DNA from: a virus
Taxonomy: Duplodnaviria; Caudoviricetes
Virus record (IMG/VR): IMGVR_UViG_3300021514_000002
Span: 160,001 to 224,000 of that record
Reading direction: 5' to 3' (one strand)
DNA length: 64,000 bases
Shown in pieces: positions 7,395-61,589 of the stretch (positions are counted from its first letter, which is position 1; each line of letters starts with the position of its first letter). The notes under the pieces were generated by a model. It was not told the DNA's origin and made no database searches. It worked only from the letters and a program-made list of their open reading frames with translations. Both the position numbers and the translations under genes were made by a program.

Positions 7395-7440
7395 CGATGT
7401 GATGATCATGTGACGATGTGATGATCATGTGACGATGTGA
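7395..7440 (+). repeat. 19-nt tandem repeat (CGATGTGATGATCATGTGA x2.4)
   Basis: Read directly; the same 18-mer occurs at 5162-5179. Confidence 0.85.
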
Positions 7441-7778
7441 AATCAGGAATAAACATGATAGATAATTTAATAATTGGTGAACCTATTGAAGGATTAACAT
7501 TACATGACTTGGGAATAGGGACAGAGGAAACAACATTAACCATAGGGGTGAATGAAGCCATTGAAATGGAATTATTTCTACCACGAATCCTTGTACATGT
7601 TGGTATATTTAATACTACCTCTGAAATCAAGCGCATTAACAAAGACAGACAAAACAGTACGAAGATTAAAGACGAAAATTCACGTAATTTGTGGCGCAAA
7701 CTCAACAAGCCAGAATTCACTTATATAAAATGCGGCAAAAAAACATTCTGGTTATTAGTCGGCGATATAACACAATAA
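7437..7778 (+). CDS. Hypothetical protein
   Basis: ORF of 113 aa; true start may be ATG 7456. Confidence 0.65.
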   Translation: MKSGINMIDNLIIGEPIEGLTLHDLGIGTEETTLTIGVNEAIEMELFLPRILVHVGIFNTTSEIKRINKDRQNSTKIKDENSRNLWRKLNKPEFTYIKCGKKTFWLLVGDITQ

Positions 7779-7850
7779 GCGAATATTAGTACATCCTAAT
7801 AAGCGAATATTCAAACGTACTAATACGCTCCCACTTTTTACAGGCAAGAG

Positions 7851-7878
7851 AAAAGCCCTGAATTATATCAGGGCTTTT
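7851..7878. terminator. Bidirectional intrinsic terminator
   Basis: AAAAGCCCTGA-ATTATA-TCAGGGCTTTT between convergent genes. Confidence 0.8.
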
Positions 7879-7881
7879 CGT

Positions 7882-8142
7882 TTAATTCAAGTCAGCTAAT
7901 ACGTACTCGCCAGCTTGGATCTTTTTGCGGGTTATCGCGATGCCTTCACCTAAGAACTTGTTACGATACTTTCCTGTAGTTACTGAATAATCCCACTTAT
8001 TCTCGTCGAGGGTGATTTTGCCGCCTTCGTTAATAGCGATAATAGACTGATAGCTCTGGAATGTTTCTTTATTCCCATCAGTAATAATAAACTGATTAGC
8101 AATATCATTGCCTTGCGCGCTTTGCATGTTTTGTACTTTCAT
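7882..8142 (-). CDS. Hypothetical protein
   Basis: Cassette promoter 8200 on minus strand, SD AAAGGA. Confidence 0.75.
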   Translation of the reverse strand: MKVQNMQSAQGNDIANQFIITDGNKETFQSYQSIIAINEGGKITLDENKWDYSVTTGKYRNKFLGEGIAITRKKIQAGEYVLADLN

Positions 8143-8678: not shown

Positions 8679-9086
8679 ATGAAACGCTTTGAAAAGATTA
8701 AAAAGTCAAGATACCGCAAAAAGTTAAACGAGTCTAATGACTGTGTGGTCATTGCTATCGCTATCGCTGCGCGCATGACATACGAAAAGGCACATGGTAT
8801 ATGTGAATTCCAAGGCCGCAAAAAAGGCAAAGGCATACACACTGAGCACGTCTTAAAGCATCTTAAAGTTATTGGTTTTAAAATTGAAAAGGTTAAAAAC
8901 CTTCGTCAAAAAAATGGATCACGTTATACACCTAAAACGATAGGCGATAGATTAAAACGTGGATATTATATAATACGCAAAAACCGTCATGCTATTGCGG
9001 TAGTCAATGGCGTAGTCGAAGACTGGACGAGTGGCAGACAACACCACATTAAAGACGCCTTTAAAATAACACGTATTAGATCTTGA
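8679..9086 (+). CDS. Phage protein with NDCV...H...D pattern (possible papain/C39-like fold)
   Basis: Cys in NDCVVIA and His in HAIAVVNG...D; cassette promoter 8621. Confidence 0.55.
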   Translation: MKRFEKIKKSRYRKKLNESNDCVVIAIAIAARMTYEKAHGICEFQGRKKGKGIHTEHVLKHLKVIGFKIEKVKNLRQKNGSRYTPKTIGDRLKRGYYIIRKNRHAIAVVNGVVEDWTSGRQHHIKDAFKITRIRS

Positions 9087-9144
9087 CAATCGCGCAGGCT
9101 TGCGCTACTATTAACATAGTCAATAAACAAAAGGAATAATAATT

Positions 9145-9300
9145 ATGCTTTATATTCAACGTAAAGATAATAACACTCTTGAAACAGTGGACGAATTTGA
9201 AACCCGTAAAGAAGCGCGAGAAATGCTAACCGAATATCAAATGTCTGATGCAACTGCCTCTTTTTACATGTCGACACGTGCCTGTAAAGGTTGGAAATAA
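9145..9300 (+). CDS. Small hypothetical protein (51 aa; not in ORF track)
   Basis: Translated by hand MLYIQRKDNNTLETVDEF...; cassette promoter 9083. Confidence 0.65.
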   Translation: MLYIQRKDNNTLETVDEFETRKEAREMLTEYQMSDATASFYMSTRACKGWK

Positions 9301-9375
9301 ACTAGTTAAGTTATTGACAAGGGCAACGGATTGCCCTATAATTACCACAGTCAACAAACAAAAGGAATAACCATC

Positions 9376-9558
9376 ATGTCTAATTCTAATAACATGCAAC
9401 CGTTTAACTTTAATAAACAACAATCTTGGAACGTCCTTATCGGTGACAACGTAATCGACACCGTTTTCTATGATAAAAATCTCGATGCTGATTATGTACG
9501 AGATGGCCTTGTGAACCATGACGGATACCCCGCAGAGATTGAAGTATTAAAAGGGTAA
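9376..9558 (+). CDS. Small hypothetical protein
   Basis: Start re-set to ATG 9376; promoter 9314. Confidence 0.65.
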   Translation: MSNSNNMQPFNFNKQQSWNVLIGDNVIDTVFYDKNLDADYVRDGLVNHDGYPAEIEVLKG

Positions 9559-9628
9559 AATAATAATTGACAATAGCGCAGGGATGCGCTATTATTACCA
9601 CAGTCAACGAACAAAAGGAATACAGCTT

Positions 9629-9817
9629 ATGAATATTTCACAATACGACGATTCAGAATTATCTAATATGGTCGATAACGATGAATACTTATACAATATT
9701 GCACTGTTTGCAGATGATTTTGAAGAACTAAAAACTGCAGTAATTGAATGCTTTGTTTTTAACGCCGATCAAATGGCAGAACTTGAACGTGATTTCAATG
9801 AAGGCCGGTGGTCTTAA
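9629..9817 (+). CDS. Small acidic hypothetical protein
   Basis: Start re-set to ATG 9629; promoter 9567. Confidence 0.65.
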   Translation: MNISQYDDSELSNMVDNDEYLYNIALFADDFEELKTAVIECFVFNADQMAELERDFNEGRWS

Positions 9818-9882
9818 TACTTGACAAGGGCGCAAGGATGCGCTACTATTACCACAGTCAACGAACAAAAGGAATAAACACC

Positions 9883-9996
9883 ATGCACTTATTTCATTCC
9901 ACTAAAACCGATACCGTTTTTAACTTTTTGTTTTTAATTACCGCTATCGTGATCCCTGTATTCATCTTCATTGGTTCAAACATTCCCGCTATTTAA
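9883..9996 (+). CDS. Small membrane peptide (37 aa)
   Basis: Start ATG 9883; single hydrophobic helix; promoter 9821. Confidence 0.55.
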   Translation: MHLFHSTKTDTVFNFLFLITAIVIPVFIFIGSNIPAI

Positions 9997-10218
9997 TACT
10001 TGACACTAGCCCAGCAATGGGCTATAATGTTTACAGAGGCTAAGGAAAGCCGAAGGCCAAAAGGTCTACATAAGACTGGCCAACCTGCCTACCTATATCG
10101 GTATATCCTAATAAACTAATGTACTAACTATTTTAACCTAATTGCTTGACTTTTAATTTAAAAGATGTATAATTGCTTTAAATCAACAACTTAACACAAA
10201 ACAAAAGAGGCACAAATC

Positions 10219-11067
10219 ATGTTTAGAGAAATGACACATACGGGCACTATCGCGTTATTAAATGAACAGATGATCCAGAACGCGCCAAGTATTTTCGCAA
10301 CCGAGCCGCATTCAGAAGTATCTGATCGCTATGGTTTTGTTTCCACTATTAATGTCATCGACGCTTTACGCAAAGAAGGCTGGATGCCTGTTGACGTATC
10401 GCAAAAGAATGTACGCGATAAATCAAAACGTGAACTAACAAAACACTTGATCCGTTTTCGCCGTTTAGCTGACGATATACAGATCGGTGATTCTTTTGTA
10501 GAGTTAATCCTTACTAACAGCCATGACCGTTCGAGCGCGTTTGTTTTACATGCTGGCCTTTTCCGTATGGCGTGTGCTAATGGTATCGTGATCGCAGATT
10601 CTACATTCAATAAGTTATCTGTACGCCACGGCAAAAACGTAGTATCTGATATCATCGACGGCGCATACGATGTCATCGACGATGTTCCAATGATTGCAAA
10701 CGAAGTTGAAACAATGCAAAATGTTGAGCTTTCAGGTGCAGAGCGTGCATTGTTTGCTAAGACTGCATACAACTATATCAACGGCGATCAAGGTGAAAAC
10801 CTGCTAACGTCTGAGGGTAATATTGTTAATCAAATGTTACGCCCTAAACGCCACGCGGATCAAGGTCACGACCTTTGGACTACTTTCAATGTAGTGCAAG
10901 AGAATGTTATCCGAGGCGGGATTCGTACCACTAAGCGCAATGATAAAGGACGCTTACGCCGTAGTACATCACGCGCAGTCAAGGCCATTGATAAGAATAT
11001 TAAACTTAATAAGGCATTATGGGAGATGGCTGAACAATTCAAGCAATTGAAAACACAAGCCCATTAA
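10219..11067 (+). CDS. DUF932/DUF945 family phage/plasmid protein
   Basis: APSIFA...SDRY..VST..V...L..EGW, NSHD..S, GLFR..CANG, DLW..FNV.QEN motifs. Confidence 0.85.
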   Translation: MFREMTHTGTIALLNEQMIQNAPSIFATEPHSEVSDRYGFVSTINVIDALRKEGWMPVDVSQKNVRDKSKRELTKHLIRFRRLADDIQIGDSFVELILTNSHDRSSAFVLHAGLFRMACANGIVIADSTFNKLSVRHGKNVVSDIIDGAYDVIDDVPMIANEVETMQNVELSGAERALFAKTAYNYINGDQGENLLTSEGNIVNQMLRPKRHADQGHDLWTTFNVVQENVIRGGIRTTKRNDKGRLRRSTSRAVKAIDKNIKLNKALWEMAEQFKQLKTQAH

Positions 11068-35908: not shown

Positions 35909-36232
35909 TCATACAGTAAAACTTTCCCCACATCCACATTCGGCAGCAACATTGGGATTATTAAACTTAAACCCTTCATTAAGACCTTCTTTGGTGTAAT
36001 CTAATTCAGTTCCATTAATATAAATAAGACTTTTTTGGTCAACGATGAGTTTAACTCCGTTTGATTCAAACACTACATCATCTGCGTTAACAATATCAAT
36101 AAATTCAAGAACGTATGCCATTCCTGAACATCCTGTTGTTTTTATACCTACGCGCAAACCTAAGCCTTTACCACGACTTGTAAGATAATCCTGAACTCGT
36201 TGCGCGGCAATCTCTGTTATGGATAGTCCCAT
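35909..36232 (-). CDS. iscA: Fe-S cluster assembly A-type carrier
   Basis: TGCSGMAY...FNNPN...CGCGESF. Confidence 0.95.
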
Positions 36233-48153: not shown

Positions 48154-50655
48154 TCATGCTAACGCCATCTCCTCGTCTGTTAGTGCATATGTCCAATCTC
48201 TGTACCTGATTAAAACACCATTCATATAAGATGTATTTTTTGTGCCAAGTTCAATACTGGATGTGGAAATATCATTCGGTGTTCCGTTATAGGTGGAACC
48301 ATCCTGAACGCCGTTCAACCACATTTTAAAAACGCCGTTAGTATGTGTTATACCTACTCTTATAGGAACCCCAATAGGCAAAGGGGTTGTTCCCGTTATT
48401 CGAGCGCCTGTGTTATAGAACCATTCTAAATAGAAGTTTATACCATCAGCAGTAGTGTACACCAATGAATCATGGGTGTTATTATAAACATATATACCAC
48501 CAGTGGAGAACGTTGTACCATACAACACAATATCTAAAATCCTTGTGTAATCATAAATAACTTGTAATGTAACATTGTCCTTCTGCAATGAAATTGTAGG
48601 TGAATGTTTTCTAGTTACCGCGACGGTAGTAGTTTCTATTCTGGATGATGGACCAGATGCATACTCTAGTTGATTATAGTCTATTGCTAGTTTATCACCA
48701 GAGGTGCTTATCTTAATTCCAAACTGGGGATCAAGTTGAGTTTGATTCATCCACACTCTTACCCATGGACGATTTAATATATTCAACTGAGCTGTCACAT
48801 CTGTATAAGTAGCCCCACCATCCATCGTTATGGATATTGTTCCTGTACCAACCAGTCGTTTTATATCACAACTATATGCTCTTCTGGCTGAAGAAGCAGT
48901 AAAAGTTTGAAACACCGTAGCATCGGCTGCTGTTGCTAAGATAGATGATGCTGCACTCGCAACATTGTCCATACCTAGTTGATCAAACAACGCGGTCATG
49001 TTGGTCTTAACCCATGCAGCATTCGACATGTCACGTGAGTAAAGCACCTCATTAGTACGGTCATCTTCACAAACAGTACCGCGAAAATTCTTACCCTCTG
49101 TAGATATTGGGAAACTCCCAACTGTGTATGCTTCGGTAGCAACAGGAATACCGTCAAAAGGTCTGTTCAAAAATAATTGCGTGACATTATTGCCAGTTAT
49201 CCAACGTGCTTCGCCGTCACCACTCCACCATACTAGCTTGTCTTTGTGTTCTCCAGGAGTCCATGTTTGTGTGGTGTCTTCCAATATAGACTGAGTTGAC
49301 CCCGCGCCTGTCAGCGTACCTGAAAATTGTACAAGTGTTTCTACATACTCAAAGCGGTCTTTCTGTGTGAATGTACTTGTTGATGTAGAGTGTACTATAG
49401 GCTCTGGGAACCCGCTATTTATAACTGCGTTATAGTTTGTAAAACTATGGTCGTTAGTAGGAATTGCTATTGTACCAACAGAACCAACAGGAACACCACC
49501 TCCACTAGCAGGTGTTTCATTAACCCATTTACTAGTACCACTATCATAAGTAAGTACCTGACCATCTACAATGTCTAACGGTGAACCCGTTGGTGTAAGG
49601 GTAACATCAGTTAAACCATTTAATGAAGTAACACTGCTCGCACCACCAATACTAGTAAATTTTGCAGCTTCTATAAAGACCGCATCTGCGCTGTCGGATA
49701 AATCTATCGCACCACCGCGAATAATTAAATATCCACGGGTTATTCCTGTGGCAAATGCTGGATTGTATAGGTGATTAACATCCGGCAAATCTGCAAGTGC
49801 CTCGGCGAAGCTTCCATAATCCGTTTGCCCATATTCAATGCGATGACCTGCACCAGGACAATGGTTTATAATCTGGACTGTCCATGTGTTTGAACCAACA
49901 GTACCAGGTGCGCCGTCACCATCATCCCATTCATCAGGAACAATGGTATTAGTCTTGTTTGTTAATGTATATCCGCCAGAGCCATCTTGGTAACTATAAA
50001 TCCATTCGAATGCTGTTTCTGCGCCATCTGTTGTAATATCGGGGACTGCTTTATTAATATGAAAATTGTTACCAACGCGATAACTTTCGCCAATGGATTT
50101 ATCTAAGTTTAAATTTCCACCATTTGCACTATATACGTTACCACTAATGTTAAAACTTCCAAGAGCTAGACCAAGATCGGACAACCGCGCAGCTGTATCA
50201 AATGCAGCAATAGGATCACTTCTTATACCAAGAACATTAGTATTATTTGCATGGCCGATAGTACCAAGAATAATATAATCCCTTGTATTGGCGGGTGTGA
50301 AATTTGTTGTTTGTTGTATAAGATTAACTGAAGGCGAGCCGGAAATATCAATGGCAATAAAAGTTTGTGGCTCGGTCGCAATATTTGTAATTGCAACATC
50401 CGTATAAGCTGACCATGATACAAGTTGATATGTTGGATTTTCAGGATCGGTATAATTATTAACTACAATACCAGACCCTGCTGTTACTGAAAATGTTGTT
50501 GTTGTTAATGGAGAACCAGACAATGTACCAAACGAAAGCGCGCCGCCCGTAAACAATCCTGTTGAAATTTTACTTAATTGTATTGGCAATAAGCCATTTG
50601 CATCAGGAAAAACAACTTCACCTGGTTCGATTTGAAAACCTTTAATACGTGCCAT
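48154..50655 (-). CDS. Virion fibre/spike protein with C-terminal LamG-like domain
   Basis: T/G/S-rich; L..LTDV linker; EDDRTNEVLYSRD..NAAW; VGIT.TNG...WLNG...G.K...NG...ALTDEE. Confidence 0.75.
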   Translation of the reverse strand: MARIKGFQIEPGEVVFPDANGLLPIQLSKISTGLFTGGALSFGTLSGSPLTTTTFSVTAGSGIVVNNYTDPENPTYQLVSWSAYTDVAITNIATEPQTFIAIDISGSPSVNLIQQTTNFTPANTRDYIILGTIGHANNTNVLGIRSDPIAAFDTAARLSDLGLALGSFNISGNVYSANGGNLNLDKSIGESYRVGNNFHINKAVPDITTDGAETAFEWIYSYQDGSGGYTLTNKTNTIVPDEWDDGDGAPGTVGSNTWTVQIINHCPGAGHRIEYGQTDYGSFAEALADLPDVNHLYNPAFATGITRGYLIIRGGAIDLSDSADAVFIEAAKFTSIGGASSVTSLNGLTDVTLTPTGSPLDIVDGQVLTYDSGTSKWVNETPASGGGVPVGSVGTIAIPTNDHSFTNYNAVINSGFPEPIVHSTSTSTFTQKDRFEYVETLVQFSGTLTGAGSTQSILEDTTQTWTPGEHKDKLVWWSGDGEARWITGNNVTQLFLNRPFDGIPVATEAYTVGSFPISTEGKNFRGTVCEDDRTNEVLYSRDMSNAAWVKTNMTALFDQLGMDNVASAASSILATAADATVFQTFTASSARRAYSCDIKRLVGTGTISITMDGGATYTDVTAQLNILNRPWVRVWMNQTQLDPQFGIKISTSGDKLAIDYNQLEYASGPSSRIETTTVAVTRKHSPTISLQKDNVTLQVIYDYTRILDIVLYGTTFSTGGIYVYNNTHDSLVYTTADGINFYLEWFYNTGARITGTTPLPIGVPIRVGITHTNGVFKMWLNGVQDGSTYNGTPNDISTSSIELGTKNTSYMNGVLIRYRDWTYALTDEEMALA

Positions 50656-50669
50656 TTTTTATATTCTCC

Positions 50670-52922
50670 TTATACCAATAATATGTTTTCAATTTGATTA
50701 CCACTAGGAATAGTGTAATTAAATGTAACGTAACTAGAAAACTCACCAACTGGTACAATGTTGCCGCTTATATCTGTTTCCGCGTAATCGCCGTCTGTGC
50801 CTGCTATGGCAGCTTCTAATTGTGCAAACCCACCCATAGGCGTAAAGTGCACATCCCCATACGGCGATGGCGCGGGTGGTGTTGGTGACGGTGAGCCACC
50901 AGGTATATATGCACCTAATAAAGGTACATTTAATGTGTAATCTGCAACCCAACCGATTGGAATTGTCGTAACGCCTGGTGAGCCGCCAAAACTTGGACCT
51001 GATTGATATACCGAATAAACACTATCAAAGTTGCCATATGTAGCATCAACGGAGCCGCGAATTGTAAATGTTTTTCCTGCTGGGAAAAGTGCAGTTACAT
51101 CGCCACTTATTATAATTTCATCTGGAATTATTGGCGAGCCAGAACCCATACTTGGTGCGCTTATAAAATTCGCGCTTATAATTACTGTAGGACTAGGATC
51201 GGTCGCGAACAAATATGTTCCATCAGGTGAACCAACACCTGGATCAGTTATGGCAATAGAACTAGTCGAGCCTGCTGAATCTGTTGTAAACTTTTCAAGA
51301 TCATCATCTTCGAGTTCAAATAACACATGTGCTAAGTGCGGACTTCCTGAAGACATAATACTATTAATTGTTGCTATAAGACTGCCGTGTGTAACCACAG
51401 ATGCCCCTGCTGGGATAGTTACGGTTACAGCACCACCTCCATTGATGCTTACGGCAAAATCATACGTCACTGTTGCATCTAGACCTGTATAAGTCGTTGA
51501 AGAAATAAGTCCTACGCTTGTATCGTATCTAACACGCTGTACACCATGGGTATGTGCATATTGTTTTAATCCATTTATCGTAATGGATAATTTGTTATCA
51601 TTAACAACATGTGCTAAAATTTCATACGGCGCAGGAGTTGTAAGATCGGCAACAAGTGTTTCAAGATTACGGATAACAGAAAGTTCCGTTGGTTCCGTTG
51701 ATGTTCCACCACTGCCAACGGCTGCGACATTATCAACATAATTTTTTGTAGCAAGATCATTACTGGCTACTGGTTCGGCAGCTGCCACTTGTCCGCCAAA
51801 ATTAGCACCACCCGAAGATGTTACCGTACCAGTAAACGTAGGTGAGGCTCTATTGGCCTTAATTAAATCAATATTTTCAATGACAGCTTGTACTGACGCG
51901 CCCGCAATATCAAGGATTGGGGAACCAGTATTATCAAACGTTATTTCAGTCGCAGTATGGGCATGTCCTACCCGCGATACACCATCTATTGTAAGTATGC
52001 CTATATTTGGCGAGCCTGGATGTGTTATTGTAAATTGTAACGAAGTTTCAGTTATATTTGGTAAGGGTGAACCGCCAGCTGCTGCAATCCAATCGACTTG
52101 ACTTAATACGCCATCGCCCCCAGCACCAGTAAGAACAAATGATTCAACATAGGCTTTAGAAGCTGCCTCGTCTGGATCGGTTGGAGTAAGTGGTAACCCT
52201 GTAATAGTACCACCACCTACAGTAACTGGTGACGCTGGACTACCAAGTGGTGCAACTATTAAATTGCCACCATTTATAGTTAAATTAGCACTGACATCCA
52301 TTGTATCACCAGTGCGACTGATTTTACCATCAAGTTGGTTTTGAATAGTAATTGAACCAATCGGGGAACCAGTGACAATACCTTTTAACGTATTAACTTC
52401 GTCGGCGGTTAACGTTGGCAAATCCAATGAATCTAAGAATGTATTTTGTGTTGTTGTGAGGTGAATAGTATCAAGAACAGTATGGGCATCAACATATTGT
52501 CTAGGTACTGCTCCAAGCGCACTACTGGGGTTACCATCCAATATCAGTTCACCTGTCATAGCAGATGTGCCTGTGGCTAAAATAACAGCATCCCAAGCAG
52601 TTGCACTATTACGAATAAATAACTCTGGACCAAGAATAGGACTTCCAGTACCAATGTTGTTGTACCATAATTGGCCTTCTATCGCAGAACCAGGTTCAGT
52701 ACCTGCTGCGAAGTTTTCAAGCATGTAGATTAAATCTTGCTCAATTCCCTGACCATAATCTTGCATACCTTTACCATACAATTTTAAGGTTGTAGTTGCA
52801 GCTACTGCATGATCAATAAAAATAGGATCGGATGGACTTGTTGGTCCATTCGTGGTATACGGATAAACGGAAAATTCCGGTTTCGTAGTATCTGAATAAA
52901 AAAACGTATATTTTGTTGCCAT
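50670..52922 (-). CDS. Virion baseplate/tail-fibre protein
   Basis: LYGKG...YGQ......MLENFA...GQLWYN; A.K.YVD fibre repeats; 11 GSP motifs. Confidence 0.75.
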   Translation of the reverse strand: MATKYTFFYSDTTKPEFSVYPYTTNGPTSPSDPIFIDHAVAATTTLKLYGKGMQDYGQGIEQDLIYMLENFAAGTEPGSAIEGQLWYNNIGTGSPILGPELFIRNSATAWDAVILATGTSAMTGELILDGNPSSALGAVPRQYVDAHTVLDTIHLTTTQNTFLDSLDLPTLTADEVNTLKGIVTGSPIGSITIQNQLDGKISRTGDTMDVSANLTINGGNLIVAPLGSPASPVTVGGGTITGLPLTPTDPDEAASKAYVESFVLTGAGGDGVLSQVDWIAAAGGSPLPNITETSLQFTITHPGSPNIGILTIDGVSRVGHAHTATEITFDNTGSPILDIAGASVQAVIENIDLIKANRASPTFTGTVTSSGGANFGGQVAAAEPVASNDLATKNYVDNVAAVGSGGTSTEPTELSVIRNLETLVADLTTPAPYEILAHVVNDNKLSITINGLKQYAHTHGVQRVRYDTSVGLISSTTYTGLDATVTYDFAVSINGGGAVTVTIPAGASVVTHGSLIATINSIMSSGSPHLAHVLFELEDDDLEKFTTDSAGSTSSIAITDPGVGSPDGTYLFATDPSPTVIISANFISAPSMGSGSPIIPDEIIISGDVTALFPAGKTFTIRGSVDATYGNFDSVYSVYQSGPSFGGSPGVTTIPIGWVADYTLNVPLLGAYIPGGSPSPTPPAPSPYGDVHFTPMGGFAQLEAAIAGTDGDYAETDISGNIVPVGEFSSYVTFNYTIPSGNQIENILLV

Positions 52923-53040
52923 GTAATAAATCCCTATAAACCAATTACTTTCCAGTATTTATTACTTTGTAATTTAAACACTCTACTAACCTTTTTGGGG
53001 GTCAGTTGTATTGATTTAGGGGATATTTAGTACATAACTA

Positions 53041-54249
53041 TTATTGTCTGTTTAGTCGCTCCGCAAGCAGCATTACGTCAGAAAGGGTTGGCTCTTCAAT
53101 AAACGGTACGTCGTAACTATCATCAAATTCAAATGGTCGGGACATAACTCCATATAATTCGTTCAGGAATACGGGATTCTGTTCGGCAAGCAACCCATTT
53201 TGCATTTCTTCATACGTGTCTTTATGCACGAATGGGAGTTGACAATATCCGTTGACGGGTGCTAAAAATTCATCACCATTTAATAGTTTATTTGCAAGAT
53301 GGCATTTTGAACAAAATTGTCTAGCTTCACAAGTACCACATCGTATATCTTTTTGTGGTACTGGAATATCCAAACTATCCTCAAGTTCTTTTAAGCTACT
53401 AACTTCAAGAATGTTACCAAACCCATACTTATCTTTCTCTTCTGGGTGTTCTTGTGCATACGCATAATACCTATGACATGACCACAAACCACCATCGGGC
53501 GATAAGGCAAGCAAGTATTTTCCTGCACCACATCCGTAATGATCTTGGTTGGTTGAACGGAATGGTGATAAATGTGTAATAAATACAGACGCACCATCTC
53601 TATAAGATTTTACGACCATATCTTTTATGCGCCTAAATTCTATGCGGTATTTTTCTGCATCTTCCATCGTCCATTTATCAACTTCAATAACAGGAACAAT
53701 ACCAATAGATCTAATACCAAGATTGATCATTTTTTGAATACCATCTGCAACACCATCTATTGTATCTGGGGTTACGGTAGTTTCAATATGTAATGTTCGT
53801 TCATTACCCGCTTCGCTTTCGCAACGCATACAACCAGTACCTTGGTATTCTTCTACATAACGCTTAATATTATCTTCGACATTTGTTAAATTGATGCCAC
53901 CCATGGGGTGAACGAAATCTTGTCTAGTACCATCATAACTTATTTGTACCATAATATTTCTTTTAGTTTCTCTAAGTTTTTCCAATAGTGGTTCTTTCAT
54001 GAAACTACCATTTGTGAAAATCTTAATATATGACTTATTGCCTTTTTCGTCTAAGCGATTAAGGATATCAATAATCATATCACTGAATAGAAGTGGTTCA
54101 CCACCAAAAATACTCAATACATCGTTATCAGTCAATAGTTCGATAATTTTATCAACTACTCGTGGTTCTGCTTCTTCATTCTTAAATGGTACATAACAAT
54201 ATGTACATCTAAAATTACAGCGTCGGGTAAGATATAACTTAAGCTCCAT
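53041..54249 (-). CDS. Radical SAM/SPASM enzyme (rSAM-4)
   Basis: CNFRCTYC; FGGEP; Cx12Gx4C...Cx2Cx5Cx2C...C. Confidence 0.92.
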   Translation of the reverse strand: MELKLYLTRRCNFRCTYCYVPFKNEEAEPRVVDKIIELLTDNDVLSIFGGEPLLFSDMIIDILNRLDEKGNKSYIKIFTNGSFMKEPLLEKLRETKRNIMVQISYDGTRQDFVHPMGGINLTNVEDNIKRYVEEYQGTGCMRCESEAGNERTLHIETTVTPDTIDGVADGIQKMINLGIRSIGIVPVIEVDKWTMEDAEKYRIEFRRIKDMVVKSYRDGASVFITHLSPFRSTNQDHYGCGAGKYLLALSPDGGLWSCHRYYAYAQEHPEEKDKYGFGNILEVSSLKELEDSLDIPVPQKDIRCGTCEARQFCSKCHLANKLLNGDEFLAPVNGYCQLPFVHKDTYEEMQNGLLAEQNPVFLNELYGVMSRPFEFDDSYDVPFIEEPTLSDVMLLAERLNRQ

Positions 54250-55441
54250 AATATTTCCTTAGTGCGTAATAAACGCTTACTATTGTTTTTAGAACTTGTG
54301 TGGTACAATAACCGGGTTGTGTGGCTTCAACTGGACACGATACCCCGCAATATTTTAATACGTTACATGTTTTACACTTATCAGCAACAGAAGATGGGGA
54401 ATCCTCTAAACCCACCTGTGTACAACGTTGAAATGTTGACGCTTTTGATGTTTCTGGTGTTACTACAGGAACGTCACCAACATACAATCTACATCCTCTT
54501 GCTAAGAAGAAATTAGAATCGTTGGCTTTTAATCTCTCGTAAATCTGTTCACCGCGTTCAATTGCACTTAGTGGCATTTCGGTACGCTTGCCATCAATTA
54601 TTGCATTTACGTCAATAAGCAACAATGCCAATAGTGTATCAAACTCATTATCGGTTGGTAAGAACTTATCTTCTGAAACTACTTCAAATGTTAATGACAG
54701 TTCACGATTTAAGTCTGGCTCAAATTCCTTACGAATTTCTGTATAATCATAACTACCATTACACAGTGTCGCGCGAATACCAAAGTCATCGCCTGTTAAT
54801 TTGGCTAATTCTTTCGCTCTGGGTATAATGTTTTCTTGGAATTTTCCTGGTCGGTATTTGTTAGTAGGGTCTAAACTAACTTGAAGAGCTATCCTATTTG
54901 GATATTTGTCTAAAACATCAAGTAAGTTGTTATATTCTTTATCACTCACAAATAGGCCAGTTGAGATCGATACCACATATTCTGTCTGTTCTAGAATATC
55001 TTTTATTAGTTCAAAATTTAATAATGGCTCACCGCCTAAAATCGTTATATCTTTTAAAGTATCTACACTATCAATAGCTTCTAATGATTTCATTAGATAT
55101 TCAAATGTTACAACTTCACCGTTTATCATCCATGGCGTAGCGTAACAATAAGTACACTTTCCGCGACAAACGTTTGTAGAATTAACATAAATTGATTCCA
55201 CACGGCTTGGTGTAAATTGACCCAATTCCACTTCTAACTCGGCAAGAAATTCTGTTCTTGCCATGTCTGCGTCTGTTGTGTCGCTTACAATATTAACGTC
55301 ACCATGATACAACAATTTAACTGGTTGCTTTAGTGGATAGTCTGGTAGTTCTTGAAACATAGCAAGTTCTAACGAATAGGCAATATTTTTATCACCTATC
55401 TTAAACATCACAAGTTCAGGAATTTCATTTCTGCGGATCAT
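54239..55441 (-). CDS. Radical SAM/SPASM enzyme (rSAM-3) with ~85-aa N-terminal extension
   Basis: CRGKCTYC; LGGEP; Cx2Cx5Cx3C...C. Confidence 0.9.
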   Translation of the reverse strand: MIRRNEIPELVMFKIGDKNIAYSLELAMFQELPDYPLKQPVKLLYHGDVNIVSDTTDADMARTEFLAELEVELGQFTPSRVESIYVNSTNVCRGKCTYCYATPWMINGEVVTFEYLMKSLEAIDSVDTLKDITILGGEPLLNFELIKDILEQTEYVVSISTGLFVSDKEYNNLLDVLDKYPNRIALQVSLDPTNKYRPGKFQENIIPRAKELAKLTGDDFGIRATLCNGSYDYTEIRKEFEPDLNRELSLTFEVVSEDKFLPTDNEFDTLLALLLIDVNAIIDGKRTEMPLSAIERGEQIYERLKANDSNFFLARGCRLYVGDVPVVTPETSKASTFQRCTQVGLEDSPSSVADKCKTCNVLKYCGVSCPVEATQPGYCTTQVLKTIVSVYYALRKYYGA

Positions 55442-56648
55442 TTATTACTCCTTTTCGTGTGATGAAAAACGTGGCATATAAACTAAATACATAATCAATA
55501 ACTTTAACGTAACAATATAGTTCTTTAAATTTCTTAATCCCACATGAGCCACCACATAGCTTCAAGTAATTACATTCTTTACAAACGCCCGACGTTTCTA
55601 CAACTTCCTCGACCATGCTTTCATTATATAATGATTCGTCTAAAATTGGACGATTTGGACTATCACAGTAAGATAAACTGCCGTCTGGTAATAGCGTAAA
55701 GTAATTAAAACCACAGCCACATGTGCGCATATTTTTAACAATACCTTCATCATGGAACATAGGGAAAACATTCATCATAAATGAAGTTCTTTCGGTTAGG
55801 TCGCCAGCTAAAAACGCATCGAGTTCTTTATCATACAATCCACGTACTTGATCTAATGTATTGTGATTAGATAAGCGGATATCTTCAAATCCATATCCCA
55901 CCCCATCAAAGTTCACCTGAGCGCCGTCAGGAAGTTCACTACGTAAGGCATGGATGTCGTACGCTTCACGGTTTATTGTGGTTTTAACCCTAATGCGCGA
56001 ACCAAGAAATTTATATAATTTATGGAACAATCTTATATTTCGTTCGCGCTTACCTTGTTCGCTACTTGCCTTATATCGTAGCGAATTGGGAGGATCGATG
56101 CTTAATGAAATTTCAACATTATCACGGAACATTAAAAAGGTTAATAGGTCATCTATCTCGCCATCTGAACAAGGAAATGATGTACAAATTGTCCAGTCTG
56201 TATTGGGAAATAAATCAATGATATGTTTTACAATTCCAATATTCTCAAGTGGGTCACCACCAAGGAACATTCCACCCTTAATGTCTTCTGGTACAATATT
56301 ATATCGTTTAATGAATTCAGCTACGGTTTTTTCAGTTAAGACAGTCTTATCATTTTTTTCAGAAGCGGCGTAACAATATGAGCATTTAAGAGAACAATAC
56401 CAAGATGGTATTACAGTAAGGCTAGTTATTTTGCGTTCTGCAAATTCACAACTGCGAGATTGTTGAATATTATTATATATTTCATTTTGTTTGTTTTTAT
56501 TATCTTTTATGTCGTTGCATACATCCAACACTATTGGTTGATCGTATTTCCTTGGTGATACTTTCCAAGTAAGATTGATTAGATCAACCTCAACGGTAGT
56601 GTCGTCGTGGGACAGGAATGCCGTGTCCCATTTCATTAAATCTTTCAT
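55425..56648 (-). CDS. Radical SAM/SPASM enzyme (rSAM-2) with ~80-aa N-terminal extension
   Basis: CSLKCSYC; LGGDP; Cx12Gx4C...Cx2Cx5Cx3C...C. Confidence 0.92.
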   Translation of the reverse strand: MKDLMKWDTAFLSHDDTTVEVDLINLTWKVSPRKYDQPIVLDVCNDIKDNKNKQNEIYNNIQQSRSCEFAERKITSLTVIPSWYCSLKCSYCYAASEKNDKTVLTEKTVAEFIKRYNIVPEDIKGGMFLGGDPLENIGIVKHIIDLFPNTDWTICTSFPCSDGEIDDLLTFLMFRDNVEISLSIDPPNSLRYKASSEQGKRERNIRLFHKLYKFLGSRIRVKTTINREAYDIHALRSELPDGAQVNFDGVGYGFEDIRLSNHNTLDQVRGLYDKELDAFLAGDLTERTSFMMNVFPMFHDEGIVKNMRTCGCGFNYFTLLPDGSLSYCDSPNRPILDESLYNESMVEEVVETSGVCKECNYLKLCGGSCGIKKFKELYCYVKVIDYVFSLYATFFITRKGVINDPQK

Positions 56649-56660
56649 TCTAACCTTCTT

Positions 56661-58232
56661 TTATAAGGATGATATGTCTATATTATTATCTATAAGTGGA
56701 AGCGCTTCGCCAATATTTGCGTAAACTTCTGGATATGTATATGTTTCTTTATTTTTTATTACCCCGTATACATGTTTTGCTCTACCCATCATGATTACTC
56801 TGAATGGGAAGTTATGAAACGTATATACTGCAACCAAACTCTCAGGATCGATTTTTAAATAACTTCCTTCAACCCCGTAACTTTCTTCAAATTGATGGAT
56901 TTCTAATACGCGAACATCTTCGCCATTTTGGTCTTTGACATATTGATCGTCGTTACAAAAACCATCAGTGGCCATAATATTTCGTACAGAAATTCCAATC
57001 TTTGAAAACATACGAACAATAGACATGTAAGTAAATTCCATTTGTGGAATTAATGCATCTATTGCAACGAGTTGCTCACCTTCATTTACTTTACTAGTAA
57101 GAATACGCTTAAAATTAATCATGGCATGATATAATCCCATGATGCCATTAACTCCTTCTTCTAAATTCCCACCAAACTTGTCAAGTATATTAACACCCAT
57201 TATAGAATATGTCAAGCGTTCTAATATGTCATAATTTGCTGGCATATTAAATTTATTAAGAATAGAACAAACATGGGCAGTACCTGCCGAAACTGTCATT
57301 TCATTATTAACATCTGTAATTATTTGGTCATGTTTACTTAACACATCAAGATCTTTTCTAAAGGTGCAAGTAGATATTTTACCAAATTGTTTAATTACAA
57401 CATTACCATTTAAGCAAGATACAATAGGAAATAGTAAGCTTGTCGGGGAATACATTTTTTTCATTTCTGGAACAACGTCTAATAGATGTTTAATATGCTC
57501 AACTTCATATCTTTCATCATTTTTCCAGAACCCTTCTATTTCATTTAATGGTTGTATTGCAACGTTAATACCTTGTCGCTTAACATCATCCATTAATGTG
57601 CGAATTTCTTCAGGTGTTTGTTTATCTGACATCATTAGGTTGGTCTGTACGCGCGTGGGATCGATATCCGACACCGCTTGAAGTGTTCGGCGTACATCAG
57701 CATATTGAATAAATCTTGGATTAACCATACGAGGGTCAGACGAAATAGTAATATATGAACGAGGATCTGAAAAATATTTAGTAATAGTATTGGTATCCAT
57801 TCCGTTGGAAAACAATTCTACTTTAATGTGTTTATCAGGATCAATTTCATCAAGAAACCCATATAACTTTTTTAGAGCTGGTTCATTTTTGGCTTGTAAC
57901 AGTTCACCACCAGATGTTTCAAGAACAGAAGGTTTAAATTCTGCAATACGATCCATGGTGTCTTTAAGTTTAGGGTAGTTGTTTCGCACTTCTGGGAAAT
58001 TTTCAACAAAAAAACGTTCCAAACAATAATCACATGTAGTATTGCATTGTTTGTAACTTGTAATTTTTGTTTCCATTCGGGAAATATCTACTTTCGGAAG
58101 GGCGGCGATTTCGGATTTATTAAACCCATCGCCAGATCCATGAACACCCAAAGTATTTACCCAATGTTGGTCTGCTTCTGAATTACAAGGGTCGTTGAAG
58201 AATAGCTTGGTGCCATTTTTAAATGTTATCAT
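56661..58232 (-). CDS. Radical SAM enzyme (rSAM-1) with twitch-like motif and extra C-terminal domain
   Basis: CNTTCDYC; SGGE; SNG; Cx10Gx4C. Confidence 0.85.
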   Translation of the reverse strand: MITFKNGTKLFFNDPCNSEADQHWVNTLGVHGSGDGFNKSEIAALPKVDISRMETKITSYKQCNTTCDYCLERFFVENFPEVRNNYPKLKDTMDRIAEFKPSVLETSGGELLQAKNEPALKKLYGFLDEIDPDKHIKVELFSNGMDTNTITKYFSDPRSYITISSDPRMVNPRFIQYADVRRTLQAVSDIDPTRVQTNLMMSDKQTPEEIRTLMDDVKRQGINVAIQPLNEIEGFWKNDERYEVEHIKHLLDVVPEMKKMYSPTSLLFPIVSCLNGNVVIKQFGKISTCTFRKDLDVLSKHDQIITDVNNEMTVSAGTAHVCSILNKFNMPANYDILERLTYSIMGVNILDKFGGNLEEGVNGIMGLYHAMINFKRILTSKVNEGEQLVAIDALIPQMEFTYMSIVRMFSKIGISVRNIMATDGFCNDDQYVKDQNGEDVRVLEIHQFEESYGVEGSYLKIDPESLVAVYTFHNFPFRVIMMGRAKHVYGVIKNKETYTYPEVYANIGEALPLIDNNIDISSL

Positions 58233-58262
58233 ATTATCGTCCTATGTTAAGGGTATAAATTA

Positions 58263-58577
58263 TTATATGTTCTTAATTATTACGGAACGCGGAGCACCAT
58301 CAATTAATAGTTTTAATTGTGCAAACGGTGTTTCTTTTTGAATTAAAAGATTATATACAATATCTTTTGTATTTTCGCCCGTATCTAAAGTACGATTATC
58401 CGTGAGTTTAATATTATTATCGGATATATCAACATCGATACTCATATCAAGATCAGCCGATATAATTAACTCTAACCTATTAAAACCTTCGGTATCTAAA
58501 GCGCTATTAGCAATCTCTACTACGACCACATCAGATGATGTGTTTACTACATCTACTAAAAATTTATTATTGTCCAT
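58263..58577 (-). CDS. Accessory protein of the rSAM locus
   Basis: ORF between fibre gene and rSAM genes; SD AAGGA. Confidence 0.7.
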   Translation of the reverse strand: MDNNKFLVDVVNTSSDVVVVEIANSALDTEGFNRLELIISADLDMSIDVDISDNNIKLTDNRTLDTGENTKDIVYNLLIQKETPFAQLKLLIDGAPRSVIIKNI

Positions 58578-58590
58578 GATATATCCTTTA

Positions 58591-59247
58591 TTAAATTACA
58601 ACTAATGTGTAGGTATATGTAGTTGGTACGCTAAATTCCATAAAATTATTTTTTGGAACTGAAGCTTTACCAATGGATATAACGTACATTCCAGATGTTG
58701 TTAAATTAAATTGCTTTGTTGTAGGATCATAATAATCCACTGTATTGCCCGTATTCATACGGAAACATTTAATAGATTTTAATAACTCTGGGGTACGAAT
58801 ATCAGAGAATGGACTAAGATCGAAACCGTTCAATGAATATGTTCCAATAGAACATATGTTACCATACGACGTTTTCATTCTAAGTTTTGTTGTTGTTTCC
58901 GTGATATCAATCTTCGGCGTAAGCATTTCTATCAACATAGAATATGTTCCGGCCATCATTCGTGCTTCACCAGTATCACTAAACTGTGTAGCAGGTGACA
59001 AAATAACTACCTTTTCTGAATATCCATTAAATTCTTCAATACTGCCAATTAATTCATCAGTTGGTAATATTACATCTTTAACTTCAATCGCTAACGTATT
59101 TACATTGAAAACGATATATTTTCCAACCGTACCATCACCTATCATGGTATCATCAAAACTGATAGTATCAATTGTGGCAATCGCATTTAATGAAATCTTG
59201 GAAAAAGATAACGATTCAACAACGTCTGTTAGTACAAATATTCTCAT
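58591..59247 (-). CDS. Accessory protein of the rSAM locus (beta-rich)
   Basis: Start re-set to ATG 59247, 1 nt after the fibre stop codon. Confidence 0.7.
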   Translation of the reverse strand: MRIFVLTDVVESLSFSKISLNAIATIDTISFDDTMIGDGTVGKYIVFNVNTLAIEVKDVILPTDELIGSIEEFNGYSEKVVILSPATQFSDTGEARMMAGTYSMLIEMLTPKIDITETTTKLRMKTSYGNICSIGTYSLNGFDLSPFSDIRTPELLKSIKCFRMNTGNTVDYYDPTTKQFNLTTSGMYVISIGKASVPKNNFMEFSVPTTYTYTLVVI

Positions 59248-59248
59248 G

Positions 59249-60904
59249 TTATCCCCATTTAGCACATTTACTATGTGCGCAGTTACAAGTGCAAGTGCAA
59301 GTGCAAGTGCATGTACACCCACAAGTATTATTAGAACTTGGTATATATTTTGTAGTAGCACCAAATACTACTTCTAGTGAATTACCTACGAGGTTACTAG
59401 CAGAATCATAATAAGCTGCCCCATTATATGTAACTGTAGCGCCACCCGTAACTACAAAATTAAGTTTATTTGCACCATCATCATATGTTACATCAATTCC
59501 AGATTCGAAGTTTCCACTTATCATTGCACCGACAATATCCTGCAAACTTTCGGTTTTTTGTGTTTCAAAATTTGCGGCGGTTAATACTTCCGCACCACTA
59601 ATGGTAATATTAGTACCATCTAATGTGGTTGGTCCAATCCACGAAATCGTTGCACCTATCGTACCTGATATTGCATGATATATCTCAATACCCGTAGTAT
59701 GTATTCGCAGCATCACAGCTGGCTCGCCGGATTTTGCGTATGTGTGTACAGCACCTGTCCATGTAGCATTCCATAAATGTTCTACCCTACCTGAGCCATC
59801 GTCTTGGACAATTGAGTATTTGCCATTGGTTGATGTTTGTTCTAACAAGGTCGCAACAGCAGAAAATGCTAAGGTGCCTAACATAGTATCGCCAGTATCG
59901 TTTACATATCGTCCATCTGCATAATCTCGGTTTATTCCATCTGTGCCAACAACAGGAGTTCCAACATTATTAATTTGATTCGTTGCCATATCCAAGTCGC
60001 CTGCCATGGCATCGCCTGTTACATTAACAAATCGGTTGTCAGCGTAACCAAGATTTACAGCATCGTCTGCCGAATCAGGATCAGCAAGATTTTCAATTTT
60101 ATGCGAGTCCATGTTGAGAGCGCCTTGCATAGCTTTACTACCGTCACGCGGTAAGTAATTTGCGGAAACGCGTGTCCAATCTGGGGAACCACCTGTAAAA
60201 ATTCGTAAATTTCTTTCATATTCATCACTGCTAATGGCGTATGTTGAAGTTTCCCACCATAGATCGCTTATCGATGGTGCTGTTGGTGCTGTATCAGAAA
60301 AAGTAATACCACCAACACGTTTCCATATTCCTGTGAGTGGTGAACCTAAAAATTCATAAACGTAGATTTGTCCCCGTGTTTGGTTATACCACATCTGTCC
60401 TTCTATTGGGGTAGTTGCGCTAAATTGGCCTGCTTTATTTGGAACGCCAAGTTCGCCCGCACTAGCTGAAATTGCACCTGATGTAAGGTTCGGTGCAGTA
60501 AGAGGACTACCCGTAGATGCTAATGTAATTGTTGTTTCTGTAGAACCATTATATACTGCTGACTGAACGACATACGTTCCATCGTCTGTAGGTGACCCAG
60601 TAGAACCCCAAATATTAAAACTCCTTGTTGGGGGGAATGCTCGTTCAACGTCACCCACAATAGTAAAAGTTGTCCCTGTTGGAACACTAGTTATAATATG
60701 AATGTCTTCTTCCGATGAAAAATTTTCCAACATATGGATGAAGTTTTCGAGGATAGTTTCGCCCCATAGCGAATGCCCCATGCCAATAAGGTCTATGTCT
60801 GTTTGTCTGTTTCCACCGCGTGGACCAGCAACAGCATTGGGTAAAACGTTGAGAGTACTTTTTGTTGGATCAACAAAATTTATAGTGTAATTCTTAGCGG
60901 CCAT
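59249..60904 (-). CDS. Tail-fibre-like virion protein with C-terminal (Cys-X)7-Cys tail
   Basis: LIG.G...WGE..LENF..MLENF; GQMWYN; three G..M.G.L.M...I.N..P..DA.N..YAD repeats; ends NTCGCTCTCTCTCTCNCAHSKCAKWG. Confidence 0.85.
   Translation of the reverse strand: MAAKNYTINFVDPTKSTLNVLPNAVAGPRGGNRQTDIDLIGMGHSLWGETILENFIHMLENFSSEEDIHIITSVPTGTTFTIVGDVERAFPPTRSFNIWGSTGSPTDDGTYVVQSAVYNGSTETTITLASTGSPLTAPNLTSGAISASAGELGVPNKAGQFSATTPIEGQMWYNQTRGQIYVYEFLGSPLTGIWKRVGGITFSDTAPTAPSISDLWWETSTYAISSDEYERNLRIFTGGSPDWTRVSANYLPRDGSKAMQGALNMDSHKIENLADPDSADDAVNLGYADNRFVNVTGDAMAGDLDMATNQINNVGTPVVGTDGINRDYADGRYVNDTGDTMLGTLAFSAVATLLEQTSTNGKYSIVQDDGSGRVEHLWNATWTGAVHTYAKSGEPAVMLRIHTTGIEIYHAISGTIGATISWIGPTTLDGTNITISGAEVLTAANFETQKTESLQDIVGAMISGNFESGIDVTYDDGANKLNFVVTGGATVTYNGAAYYDSASNLVGNSLEVVFGATTKYIPSSNNTCGCTCTCTCTCTCNCAHSKCAKWG
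59279..59323 (-). repeat. In-frame hexamer repeat (TGCACT x4) encoding alternating Cys
   Basis: AAGTGC x4 at 59287-59310 on the plus strand. Confidence 0.95.
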
Positions 60905-60915
60905 GTTTATTCCTC

Positions 60916-61551
60916 TTATGTCCTTATGATGTATATTAAGTTATCGCCAGGTGACGCAATATTTGGCACATCAAATGTAGTTACAGACAGCGGACTTCCT
61001 AAACTAAAAGTATCACCAATTTCAATATAAAGTGCAGCAAATCGTGCTTTGTTTACAGATTGTCCAGAACATTCTAGTTCATTTGCCGACATTGTATTTC
61101 TTGCATCAATCCGTATGGTACCCGGTGAAATATTAACAGATACCCAATGGGTACCATTAAAAGTAAAGTGGTCTTTTGATGTCGTGTCGTACCAATGTTG
61201 TCCTATGATTGGTGTAGTTATTCCATTACCAATCCCAAGGTCGTTTTCGTCTTTTGGCATTACTGGATGAATAGTTTCATCATAAAGCGTCGTAGGGGAA
61301 CCTACAATAAAAGTGTCGCCTGTTACTTTTCGTGGGCAGGAAAAATTTTCCAACATACGGTATAAATTTTGATCTACGCCTTCGCCCCATTTTAGTGAAC
61401 CAAATCCAAATAAGCGCAGATCTGTCTGTCGGGCTAATCCAGCCGGACCATTTAACTCACCTGGTCCAATAACAAACGAATTGGCTTCCTTTTCAGATAA
61501 AATAGCTGCGTCATTGAAGGCTGTTTTCTTTATTACGAACGTTTCTGACAT
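60916..61551 (-). CDS. Virion protein with shared ENF-type N-domain and tail-collar-like C-domain
   Basis: LFGFG...WGE...NL..MLENFS; GQHWYD; ECSGQ.V....FAALY..IG.T...TTF..P. Confidence 0.75.
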   Translation of the reverse strand: MSETFVIKKTAFNDAAILSEKEANSFVIGPGELNGPAGLARQTDLRLFGFGSLKWGEGVDQNLYRMLENFSCPRKVTGDTFIVGSPTTLYDETIHPVMPKDENDLGIGNGITTPIIGQHWYDTTSKDHFTFNGTHWVSVNISPGTIRIDARNTMSANELECSGQSVNKARFAALYIEIGDTFSLGSPLSVTTFDVPNIASPGDNLIYIIRT

Positions 61552-61582: not shown

Positions 61583-61589
61583 TATTTAT
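61583..61589 (-). promoter_or_regulatory. T4-type late promoter core ATAAATA heading the fibre-rSAM operon
   Basis: Same motif 6-47 nt upstream of starts at 7387, 13501, 27346, 35903, 37400, 43137, 44544, 46478, 46518, 47513, 52956. Confidence 0.7.

Follow-up and report, generated by a model that had tools for sequence, protein, structure and literature searches.

Why would a phage keep four tandem radical S-adenosylmethionine (rSAM) enzymes inside an operon of tail-fiber genes, alongside a fiber whose last residues alternate cysteine with other amino acids? The question is posed by a 64,000-nucleotide stretch of DNA (the window), bases 160001–224000 of the 363,531-bp virus record IMGVR_UViG_3300021514_000002, which is judged complete and represents a vent-derived T4-like jumbo phage. 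A preliminary description of the window had proposed that these enzymes crosslink the C-terminal tip of the fiber. Our conclusion is that the end of the fiber is very probably modified chemically by the phage itself. We favor the reading that the genes form a cassette resembling those for peptides that are ribosomally synthesized and then post-translationally modified (RiPPs), which would mature the fiber by a chemistry that includes thioether formation; judged from sequence, we give this reading a probability of roughly 0.55. That the fiber tail is the substrate of the cassette enzymes is a separate part of the proposal, and one that is likelier than the reading as a whole.

The proposed substrate comprises the following features:

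59249–60904, minus strand: 551-aa fiber protein P0005, the proposed substrate, carrying the Cys tail
59252–59422, minus strand: C-terminal module of this fiber (residues ~495–551), a pre-tail motif followed by the Cys tail, leader-like and core-like, respectively
59264–59323, minus strand: the Cys tail proper, with cysteines at residues 528, 530, 532, 534, 536, 538, 540, 542, and 547

The fiber ends in CG(CT)5CNCAHSKCAKWG, the residues between the tail cysteines being G, T, and N and then A-H-S-K. The alternating-Cys end noted in the preliminary description is borne out by the full protein, in which all nine cysteines are confined to residues 528–547 (within the last 24 residues) and the remaining 526 residues contain none. 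Across all frames of the 363-kb genome no other long (CX)n run occurs, and the operon holds no small Cys-rich open reading frame (ORF) that could act as a conventional precursor. Directly before the tail lies a conserved pre-tail motif with the consensus VG.AL.VVFG..T.Y[VI]PS. Because an N-terminal anchor domain of ~70 aa is common to P0005, P0008, and P0009 (the Collar-domain neighbor and the 750-aa fiber included), the 551-aa gene belongs to the fiber set, its product being a predicted virion tail fiber; P0008 and P0005 align by BLASTP at 7e-10. Matches of the 551-aa fiber to PHROG tail-fiber families are weak; its homologs with other C-terminal domains carry Collar or tail-fiber domains, and the homolog at a related locus, L013, carries PF12571.

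Two small accessory genes and the four enzymes follow the fiber on the same strand:

58591–59247, minus strand: acc1, 218 aa, all-beta, of no known family, the next gene after the Cys-tail gene in every close relative
58263–58577, minus strand: acc2, 104 aa, conserved in position only
56661–58232, minus strand: rSAM-1, 523 aa, with CxxxCxxC (C63/67/70), three further conserved Cys, and a C-terminal domain of ~200 aa
55425–56648, minus strand: rSAM-2, 407 aa, with an N-terminal extension of ~80 aa, rSAM core, and seven-Cys SPASM domain
54239–55441, minus strand: rSAM-3, 400 aa, with a beta-rich N-terminal extension of ~80 aa, rSAM core, and seven-Cys SPASM domain
53041–54249, minus strand: rSAM-4, 402 aa, without extension, with rSAM core and seven-Cys SPASM domain

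Whether the tail and the enzymes belong together was best judged from other loci carrying the same genes. Homologs of rSAM-4 were found on metagenome contigs at 40–85% identity, and three independent loci whose contigs reach into the upstream DNA (L010, L011/L012, and L013; 40–53% identity in rSAM-4) carry the fiber, acc1, acc2, and rSAM-1 to rSAM-4 in the same order, with fibers ending in the same type of tail. Tail length across loci ranges from (CT)3 to (CT)7, with Q or N in place of some T, and in the close loci the tail always closes with N-C-x-H-(S/G)-K-C-x-K. The fiber bodies of cassette loci differ, one having PF12571 and another an unrelated N-terminus, so it is the C-terminal module of ~55 residues that travels with the enzymes. 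An alignment of this module (A1) contains 18 invariant columns. Its tail codons vary synonymously between loci (TGT/TGC, ACN, and AGY/TCN, the last spanning both Ser codon families), from which it follows that the tail peptide is under selection and is not a mere DNA repeat. Across loci each of the four paralogs pairs 1:1 with its own orthologs, which favors four distinct enzyme roles, and some relatives have a fifth, rSAM-3-like gene. For one rSAM-4 ortholog (L010, 9923–11119) the database call starts too late; the upstream open frame restores CxxxCxxC.

From 1.84 billion representative proteins, a profile built on the module recovered more proteins that combine the pre-tail motif with other Cys-rich tails, some alternating as CP/CQ, some with interrupted CT blocks, and some with Cys/His repeats; in distant variants repeats of the CHSN-CHGN-CH type replace the CT repeats, and the H-x-K-C end is kept in all. 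Two of these tail variants lie on long contigs, L015 (a phage contig of 212 kb) and L016, and rSAM/SPASM genes of the maturase type follow both, one gene in L015 and three in L016. Overall, a protein with the pre-tail motif and a Cys tail is followed by one to four rSAM/SPASM genes at each of the six loci with enough downstream DNA, and at all six the gene layout is that of a putative RiPP-type substrate, i.e., a recognition part plus a core encoded beside the enzyme. Most homologs of the fiber body, in turn, have other C-terminal domains and no Cys tail (e.g., P0035–P0044 lack it). At locus L046, which shows synteny with the window to either side of the fiber block and has a fiber with another C-terminal domain, neither acc nor rSAM genes are present, and the available 2.6 kb downstream of the L045 fiber contains none either. 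From this joint presence in tailed loci and joint absence in tail-less loci, the tail, acc1, acc2, and the enzymes come and go together as a single cassette. The comparison of neighborhoods that the preliminary description had proposed as a check on its idea thus came out in its favor.

Some of the proteins found with the profile are only 94–148 aa long. These are complete (L018, ENA k141_1078085; P0079, P0082, P0089, and P0073) and combine fiber-type repeats, the pre-tail motif, and long Cys tails; they may be mini-fibers or stand-alone substrates. At L018 the start of the next gene resembles acc1.

The enzymes themselves point to the type of chemistry. CxxxCxxC and GG(E/D) occur in all four, as first described, and are kept in every ortholog. 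By these motifs all four belong to the radical SAM superfamily (PF04055, cut-off 29.5 bits), for which rSAM-4 scores 61.9 bits, rSAM-3 41.4, rSAM-2 29.3 (just below the cut-off), and rSAM-1 15.2 (below it); all four also match phrog_1802, rSAM-1 at 7e-9. The SPASM pattern for two auxiliary 4Fe-4S clusters was taken as C-x9-15-G-x4-C ... C-x2-C-x5-C-x3-C ... C. Its seven Cys are conserved in rSAM-2, rSAM-3, and rSAM-4 (with x2 replacing x3 in rSAM-4), and scores to the SPASM hidden Markov models (HMMs) PF13186 and TIGR04085 fall under their cut-offs (15.4 vs. 21.5 and 24.1 vs. 27 bits). We regard these three as SPASM-domain enzymes with predicted auxiliary clusters. The complete patterns claimed earlier for rSAM-2 and rSAM-4 therefore stand; rSAM-3, which had been credited with half of the pattern, has all seven Cys. 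Past its core rSAM-1 conserves only C273, C289, and C322, which include the G-x4-C half-motif; these three Cys make twitch-like a better label for it than SPASM. Its C-terminal domain of ~200 aa has no recognizable relatives.

Among named families, rSAM-4 is the member that, by sequence, lies nearest the known thioether maturases. It aligns over its full length with the PapB ranthipeptide maturase model NF047865 (2e-36, 125.9 bits; the other three enzymes score ≤36 bits) and matches the nif11-like peptide maturase model (1e-20), the CXXX-repeat maturases TIGR04115 (7e-20, 71.7 bits) and TIGR04119 (1e-13, 50.9 bits), the SCIFF maturase TIGR03974 (3e-17, 62.5 bits), and QhpD TIGR03906 (2e-16, 60.0 bits). 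The NCBIfam equivalog cut-offs are 340 bits for PapB, 350 for TIGR04115, 425 for SCIFF, and 453 for QhpD, so that none of the enzymes qualifies as a PapB, CXXX-repeat, SCIFF, or QhpD family member. rSAM-2 matches the CrpC family (TIGR04463) at 5e-6. The preliminary description had allowed that the enzymes might turn out to be QueE, MoaA, or NrdG; scores to these families are low (MoaA 39.5 bits against a cut-off of 325, QueE-type 19–21 against 260, and NrdG2 21.6), and the enzymes group with RiPP and protein thioether maturases.

Structural comparison gave a similar placement. The best solved relative of rSAM-4 by sequence is CteB (5wgg, 3.8e-12). An AlphaFold2 (AF2) model of rSAM-3 (pLDDT, the predicted score in the local distance difference test, 73) is nearest to CteB (Foldseek 1e-9; VIA Z 14.4), followed by anSME (Z 13.5), ChlB, TigE, PqqE, SkfB, and SuiB. 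In this model residues 1–80 form four strands and one low-confidence helix at the position of the RiPP recognition element (RRE) of CteB, and the VIA alignment to CteB begins at residue 9 and spans that position (aligned ranges only). A predicted complex of rSAM-3, three 4Fe-4S clusters, SAM, and the tail module scored 0.02, which weighs neither for nor against binding.

Because of these family affinities, the most likely chemistry, as far as sequence can tell, is the formation of thioether bonds between the tail Cys and the interleaved Thr, Asn, or Gln. The pre-tail motif would act as the leader or recognition sequence and the Cys tail as the core. Each enzyme would cleave SAM reductively at its CxxxCxxC cluster, and the resulting 5′-deoxyadenosyl radical would take a hydrogen from an acceptor residue (Thr, Asn, Gln, or possibly another) that lies between tail cysteines; a tail Cys held at an auxiliary SPASM cluster would then form the C–S thioether, of the ranthionine or sactionine type. 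The four enzymes may install different links or work one after the other. What they make would be a ladder of crosslinks, either within a chain or between the chains of the fiber trimer, that fixes the shape of the distal tip and, since thioethers are unlike disulfides, would endure as a redox-proof staple in a reducing, sulfidic vent habitat. A bolder version of this scheme, to which we give slightly less than even odds, is that some phages of anoxic habitats staple the receptor end of their fibers, the rSAM set making a thioether ladder from the Cys tail and possibly linking three chains. The genes, their motifs, their family affinities, and their co-occurrence are observed; substrate identity and thioether chemistry, like trimer stapling and its ecological rationale, are what we infer. 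The crosslinking of the fiber tip suggested at the outset is supported in part, by both the association of tail with enzymes and the affinity of the latter to thioether maturases.

Several points weigh against it. The strict CX alternation contrasts with known thioether substrates, in which donor and acceptor are spaced by several residues, and the Cys/His-type tail variants fit metal binding equally well. Since no HMM score to a named maturase family comes anywhere near its cut-off, the chemistry of those families is not transferable. The PqqD HMM for an RRE finds no match in the N-terminal extensions, even at E values up to 10. The comparison draws on few loci (about seven independent ones), and pattern scans of three collections suggest that close family members are rare: a degenerate DNA pattern of the tail end, run against viral, metagenome, and genome collections, returned only the already known L013 contig and off-frame chance matches.

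The chief rival, credible and compatible with partial crosslinking, is that the Cys tail binds metal within the trimeric fiber tip and that the rSAM enzymes act on something else or only assist in folding or metal loading; on balance we consider it unlikely. Even a crosslinked tail could still bind metal. With such alternation all Cys would point to the same side of a beta-strand, so three chains could hold a row of metal ions, and His-x-His repeats in the tip of the T4 long tail fiber (gp37 structure) do coordinate metal ions. The distant members with their CHSN-CHGN-CH repeats and retained H-x-K-C end fit such a role, as does a strict alternation that the known thioether enzymes do not have in their substrates. 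Of the Cys-rich proteins encoded beside rSAM genes, moreover, many are metal-related (PMC13692751). Metal binding leaves unexplained, however, why the tail is gained and lost jointly with one to five maturase-type rSAM/SPASM genes, and the enzymes resemble peptide and protein maturases, not metallochaperones.

It is also improbable, in our estimation, that the enzymes modify the tail by a different chemistry, such as conversion of Cys to formylglycine (as by anSME), epimerization, or C–C crosslinking. The structural distance of rSAM-3 to anSME is about the same as that to CteB (Z 13.5 vs. 14.4), the Joint Genome Institute (JGI) labels one homolog AslB-like, all named-family scores are below cut-off, and four distinct enzymes could mean several chemistries. 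The top matches of rSAM-4, however, are consistently thioether formers (PapB at 2e-36), anSME is not among its 25 best listed families, and the tail lacks the sulfatase motif C-x-P-x-R.

The leader-like conserved motif directly before the Cys core, together with the existence of family members of only 94–148 aa, would also suit a precursor whose modified C-terminal peptide is released as a free RiPP (a toxin or signal), the fiber-like body serving as a long leader. We think this quite improbable, given that no cassette contains a protease or exporter gene, that the gene lies in a late fiber operon and has an N-terminal anchor domain in common with neighboring fibers, and that even the short members keep fiber-type repeats. 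Coincidental adjacency of a functionless hexanucleotide repeat and of rSAM genes for metabolism or nucleic-acid modification could draw on the 6-nt repeat that encodes the tail, with a copy number that differs between loci, and on two more unassigned rSAM genes elsewhere in the phage, but is very improbable in view of synonymous codon variation around invariant residues, a pairing that is found again at divergent loci and of which both partners are missing from syntenic relatives, and the lack of any QueE, MoaA, or NrdG match near cut-off.

How far, then, does a thioether-forming fiber cassette have precedent? QhpD, which acts on QhpC of quinohemoprotein amine dehydrogenase, is an rSAM/SPASM enzyme that makes thioethers at the protein level. 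CrpC, an rSAM/SPASM enzyme of Methanococcus voltae, forms ranthionine links in CrpA, a Cys-rich protein of 28.8 kDa that has a leader-like part and, at its C-terminus, a repeat region rich in Cys (PMC13692751, September 2026). CrpC/CrpA and QhpD are the closest published precedents and, because both make rSAM thioethers at the protein level, this kind of chemistry is not new; they resemble the present system in acting on a folded protein instead of a peptide. They differ in that single enzymes act there on cellular proteins, whereas here a virus structural protein is accompanied by four paralogs and two small extra proteins. A full-text literature search found no published account of rSAM enzymes acting on phage fibers. 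The preliminary statement that no characterized system of this kind exists therefore holds, within the literature searched, for the phage-fiber context but not for the chemistry.

The ranthipeptide systems PapB/PapA (freyrasin) and CteB/CteA (SCIFF) are alike in having an rSAM core with seven-Cys SPASM domain and a Cys-rich substrate with nearby acceptors, and rSAM-4 aligns end to end with both the PapB model and CteB (5wgg). Their substrates, however, are short peptides with C-x3-D spacing or six Cys in 45 residues, served by one enzyme, whereas here the end of a 551-aa fiber with strict CX alternation is paired with four enzymes in a phage late operon; rSAM-4, at 126 vs. 340 bits, is far below the family cut-off.

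The CXXX-repeat system (TIGR04115, TIGR04119, and the target repeat TIGR04114), to our knowledge defined by genome context only, likewise places an rSAM/SPASM maturase beside a protein whose C-terminal part repeats Cys at regular intervals, but with a period of 4 where the tail here has 2, and TIGR04114 does not match the tail. An unannotated human-gut phage scaffold (L020; MT835573.1, 5655–24458) carries such a set in its structural module, namely a CXXX-repeat protein, a 202-aa ORF, and a TIGR04115-like rSAM gene. The repeat protein (7430–8011; 193 aa) has 22 Cys in its C-terminal CXXX repeat and lies downstream of Ig-domain structural genes, and the rSAM gene (8893–10233) scores 300 bits to TIGR04115. 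This cassette is a sister system in an unrelated phage.

Virions are stabilized by bonds beyond ordinary folding elsewhere, as in the isopeptide chainmail of the HK97 capsid and the His-x-His iron sites of the T4 fiber tip; those are autocatalytic or simple metal sites that need no dedicated radical enzymes. What sets the present system apart as distinct is that a T4-like jumbo phage from a vent combines a tail of period 2, preceded by a motif of its own, with four or five paralogs and two private accessory proteins. If the favored reading is correct, covalent crosslinks made by radical enzymes at the host-recognition end of a phage would constitute a new layer of virion maturation, and stapling a virion post-translational step without published counterpart, with RiPP machinery recruited for a structural part instead of a natural product. 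It would bear on fiber stability, host range, and recombinant fiber production, and, together with QhpD and CrpC, would extend the substrates of rSAM/SPASM thioether enzymes beyond peptides to structural proteins of large size. Because the alternating CX pattern is unlike any characterized thioether substrate, new ring topologies are possible. The recognition motif and tail of ~55 residues, together with four distinct enzymes, make a compact testable substrate.

The cassette is embedded in what appears to be a late operon, whose remaining features are as follows:

61583–61589, minus strand: ATAAATA, T4-type late-promoter-like, 32 nt upstream of the collar gene (pattern match only)
60916–61551, minus strand: collar-domain fiber protein P0008, 211 aa (Pfam Collar PF07484, 29.8 bits, above cut-off)
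52956–52962, minus strand: second ATAAATA, preceding the 750-aa fiber
50670–52922, minus strand: further fiber, 750 aa, with its own upstream ATAAATA
48154–50655, minus strand: further fiber, 833 aa

In the minus-strand direction the order is ATAAATA, collar-domain protein, 551-aa fiber, acc1, acc2, rSAM-1 to rSAM-4, ATAAATA, and two fibers, and both the promoter-like motif at 61583 and the gene order given in the preliminary description agree with the ORFs found. The overlaps reported among rSAM-2, rSAM-3, and rSAM-4 measure 17 nt (rSAM-2/3) and 11 nt (rSAM-3/4). The block from the collar gene to rSAM-4 contains no internal ATAAATA, and its genes appear, from this arrangement, to be co-expressed from the late promoter; TATAAATA itself is not enriched in the window. 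Given the second motif at 52956–52962, the two downstream fibers are probably a separate late unit. They had at first been counted as part of the module, and we rejected them as members, since they are absent from L013 and have their own promoter-like motif.

The true ATG start of acc1 lies one base past the fiber stop; its product has no Pfam or PHROG family and just one further homolog, and its AF2 model (pLDDT 61) found no significant match in a BFVD fold search. For acc2 and the C-terminal domain of rSAM-1 there was no family and no informative atlas match, and by HMM neither acc1 nor acc2 is related to the companion ORFs of L015, L016, and L020. A further gene of the window may be connected with the enzymes:

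35909–36232, minus strand: IscA/HesB-type Fe-S assembly protein (PF01521, 76.5 bits), 17 kb away

This protein may help to load the Fe-S clusters of the six rSAM enzymes of the phage, and could possibly support an Fe-S load of up to about 10 clusters in the four cassette enzymes. An IscA/HesB homolog also lies near the rSAM cluster on a related contig, L007. The other two radical SAM genes are outside the window (G000:C1:49269–49730 and 99335–99796; loci L001 and L003; 332 and 352 aa) and have only sub-threshold matches, to tungsten-cofactor maturase-like and MoaA-like families.

Contigs from three hydrothermal-vent metagenome runs, which belong to three studies, contain the identical sequence, one of them probably being its source, and among these no variation in the number of tail repeats was seen. 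The phage has no near relatives among GenBank phages, by DNA or by fiber protein, and rSAM-4 has only distant matches there; searching IMG/VR with rSAM-4 and the tail profile gave no usable match.

Apart from the Cys tail, the fiber-like and virion proteins are strongly enriched in the tripeptide Gly-Ser-Pro, with 47 copies in four proteins vs. 12 for the next tripeptide, at sites in the window (48154–61551) and genome-wide (e.g., G000:269110–283304 and 266165–266944). As it is coded by many different codons, both Ser codon families included, it is a protein-level motif, and from sequence it is a possible modification sequon. Gly-Ser-Pro was rejected as the real rSAM substrate because relatives with the full cassette have fibers that lack it. 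Finally, L046, L007, and L008 have in common a conserved block a few kb beyond the fibers with Gad2-like and AAA_28 genes, to which L046 adds an encapsulated-ferritin-like gene.

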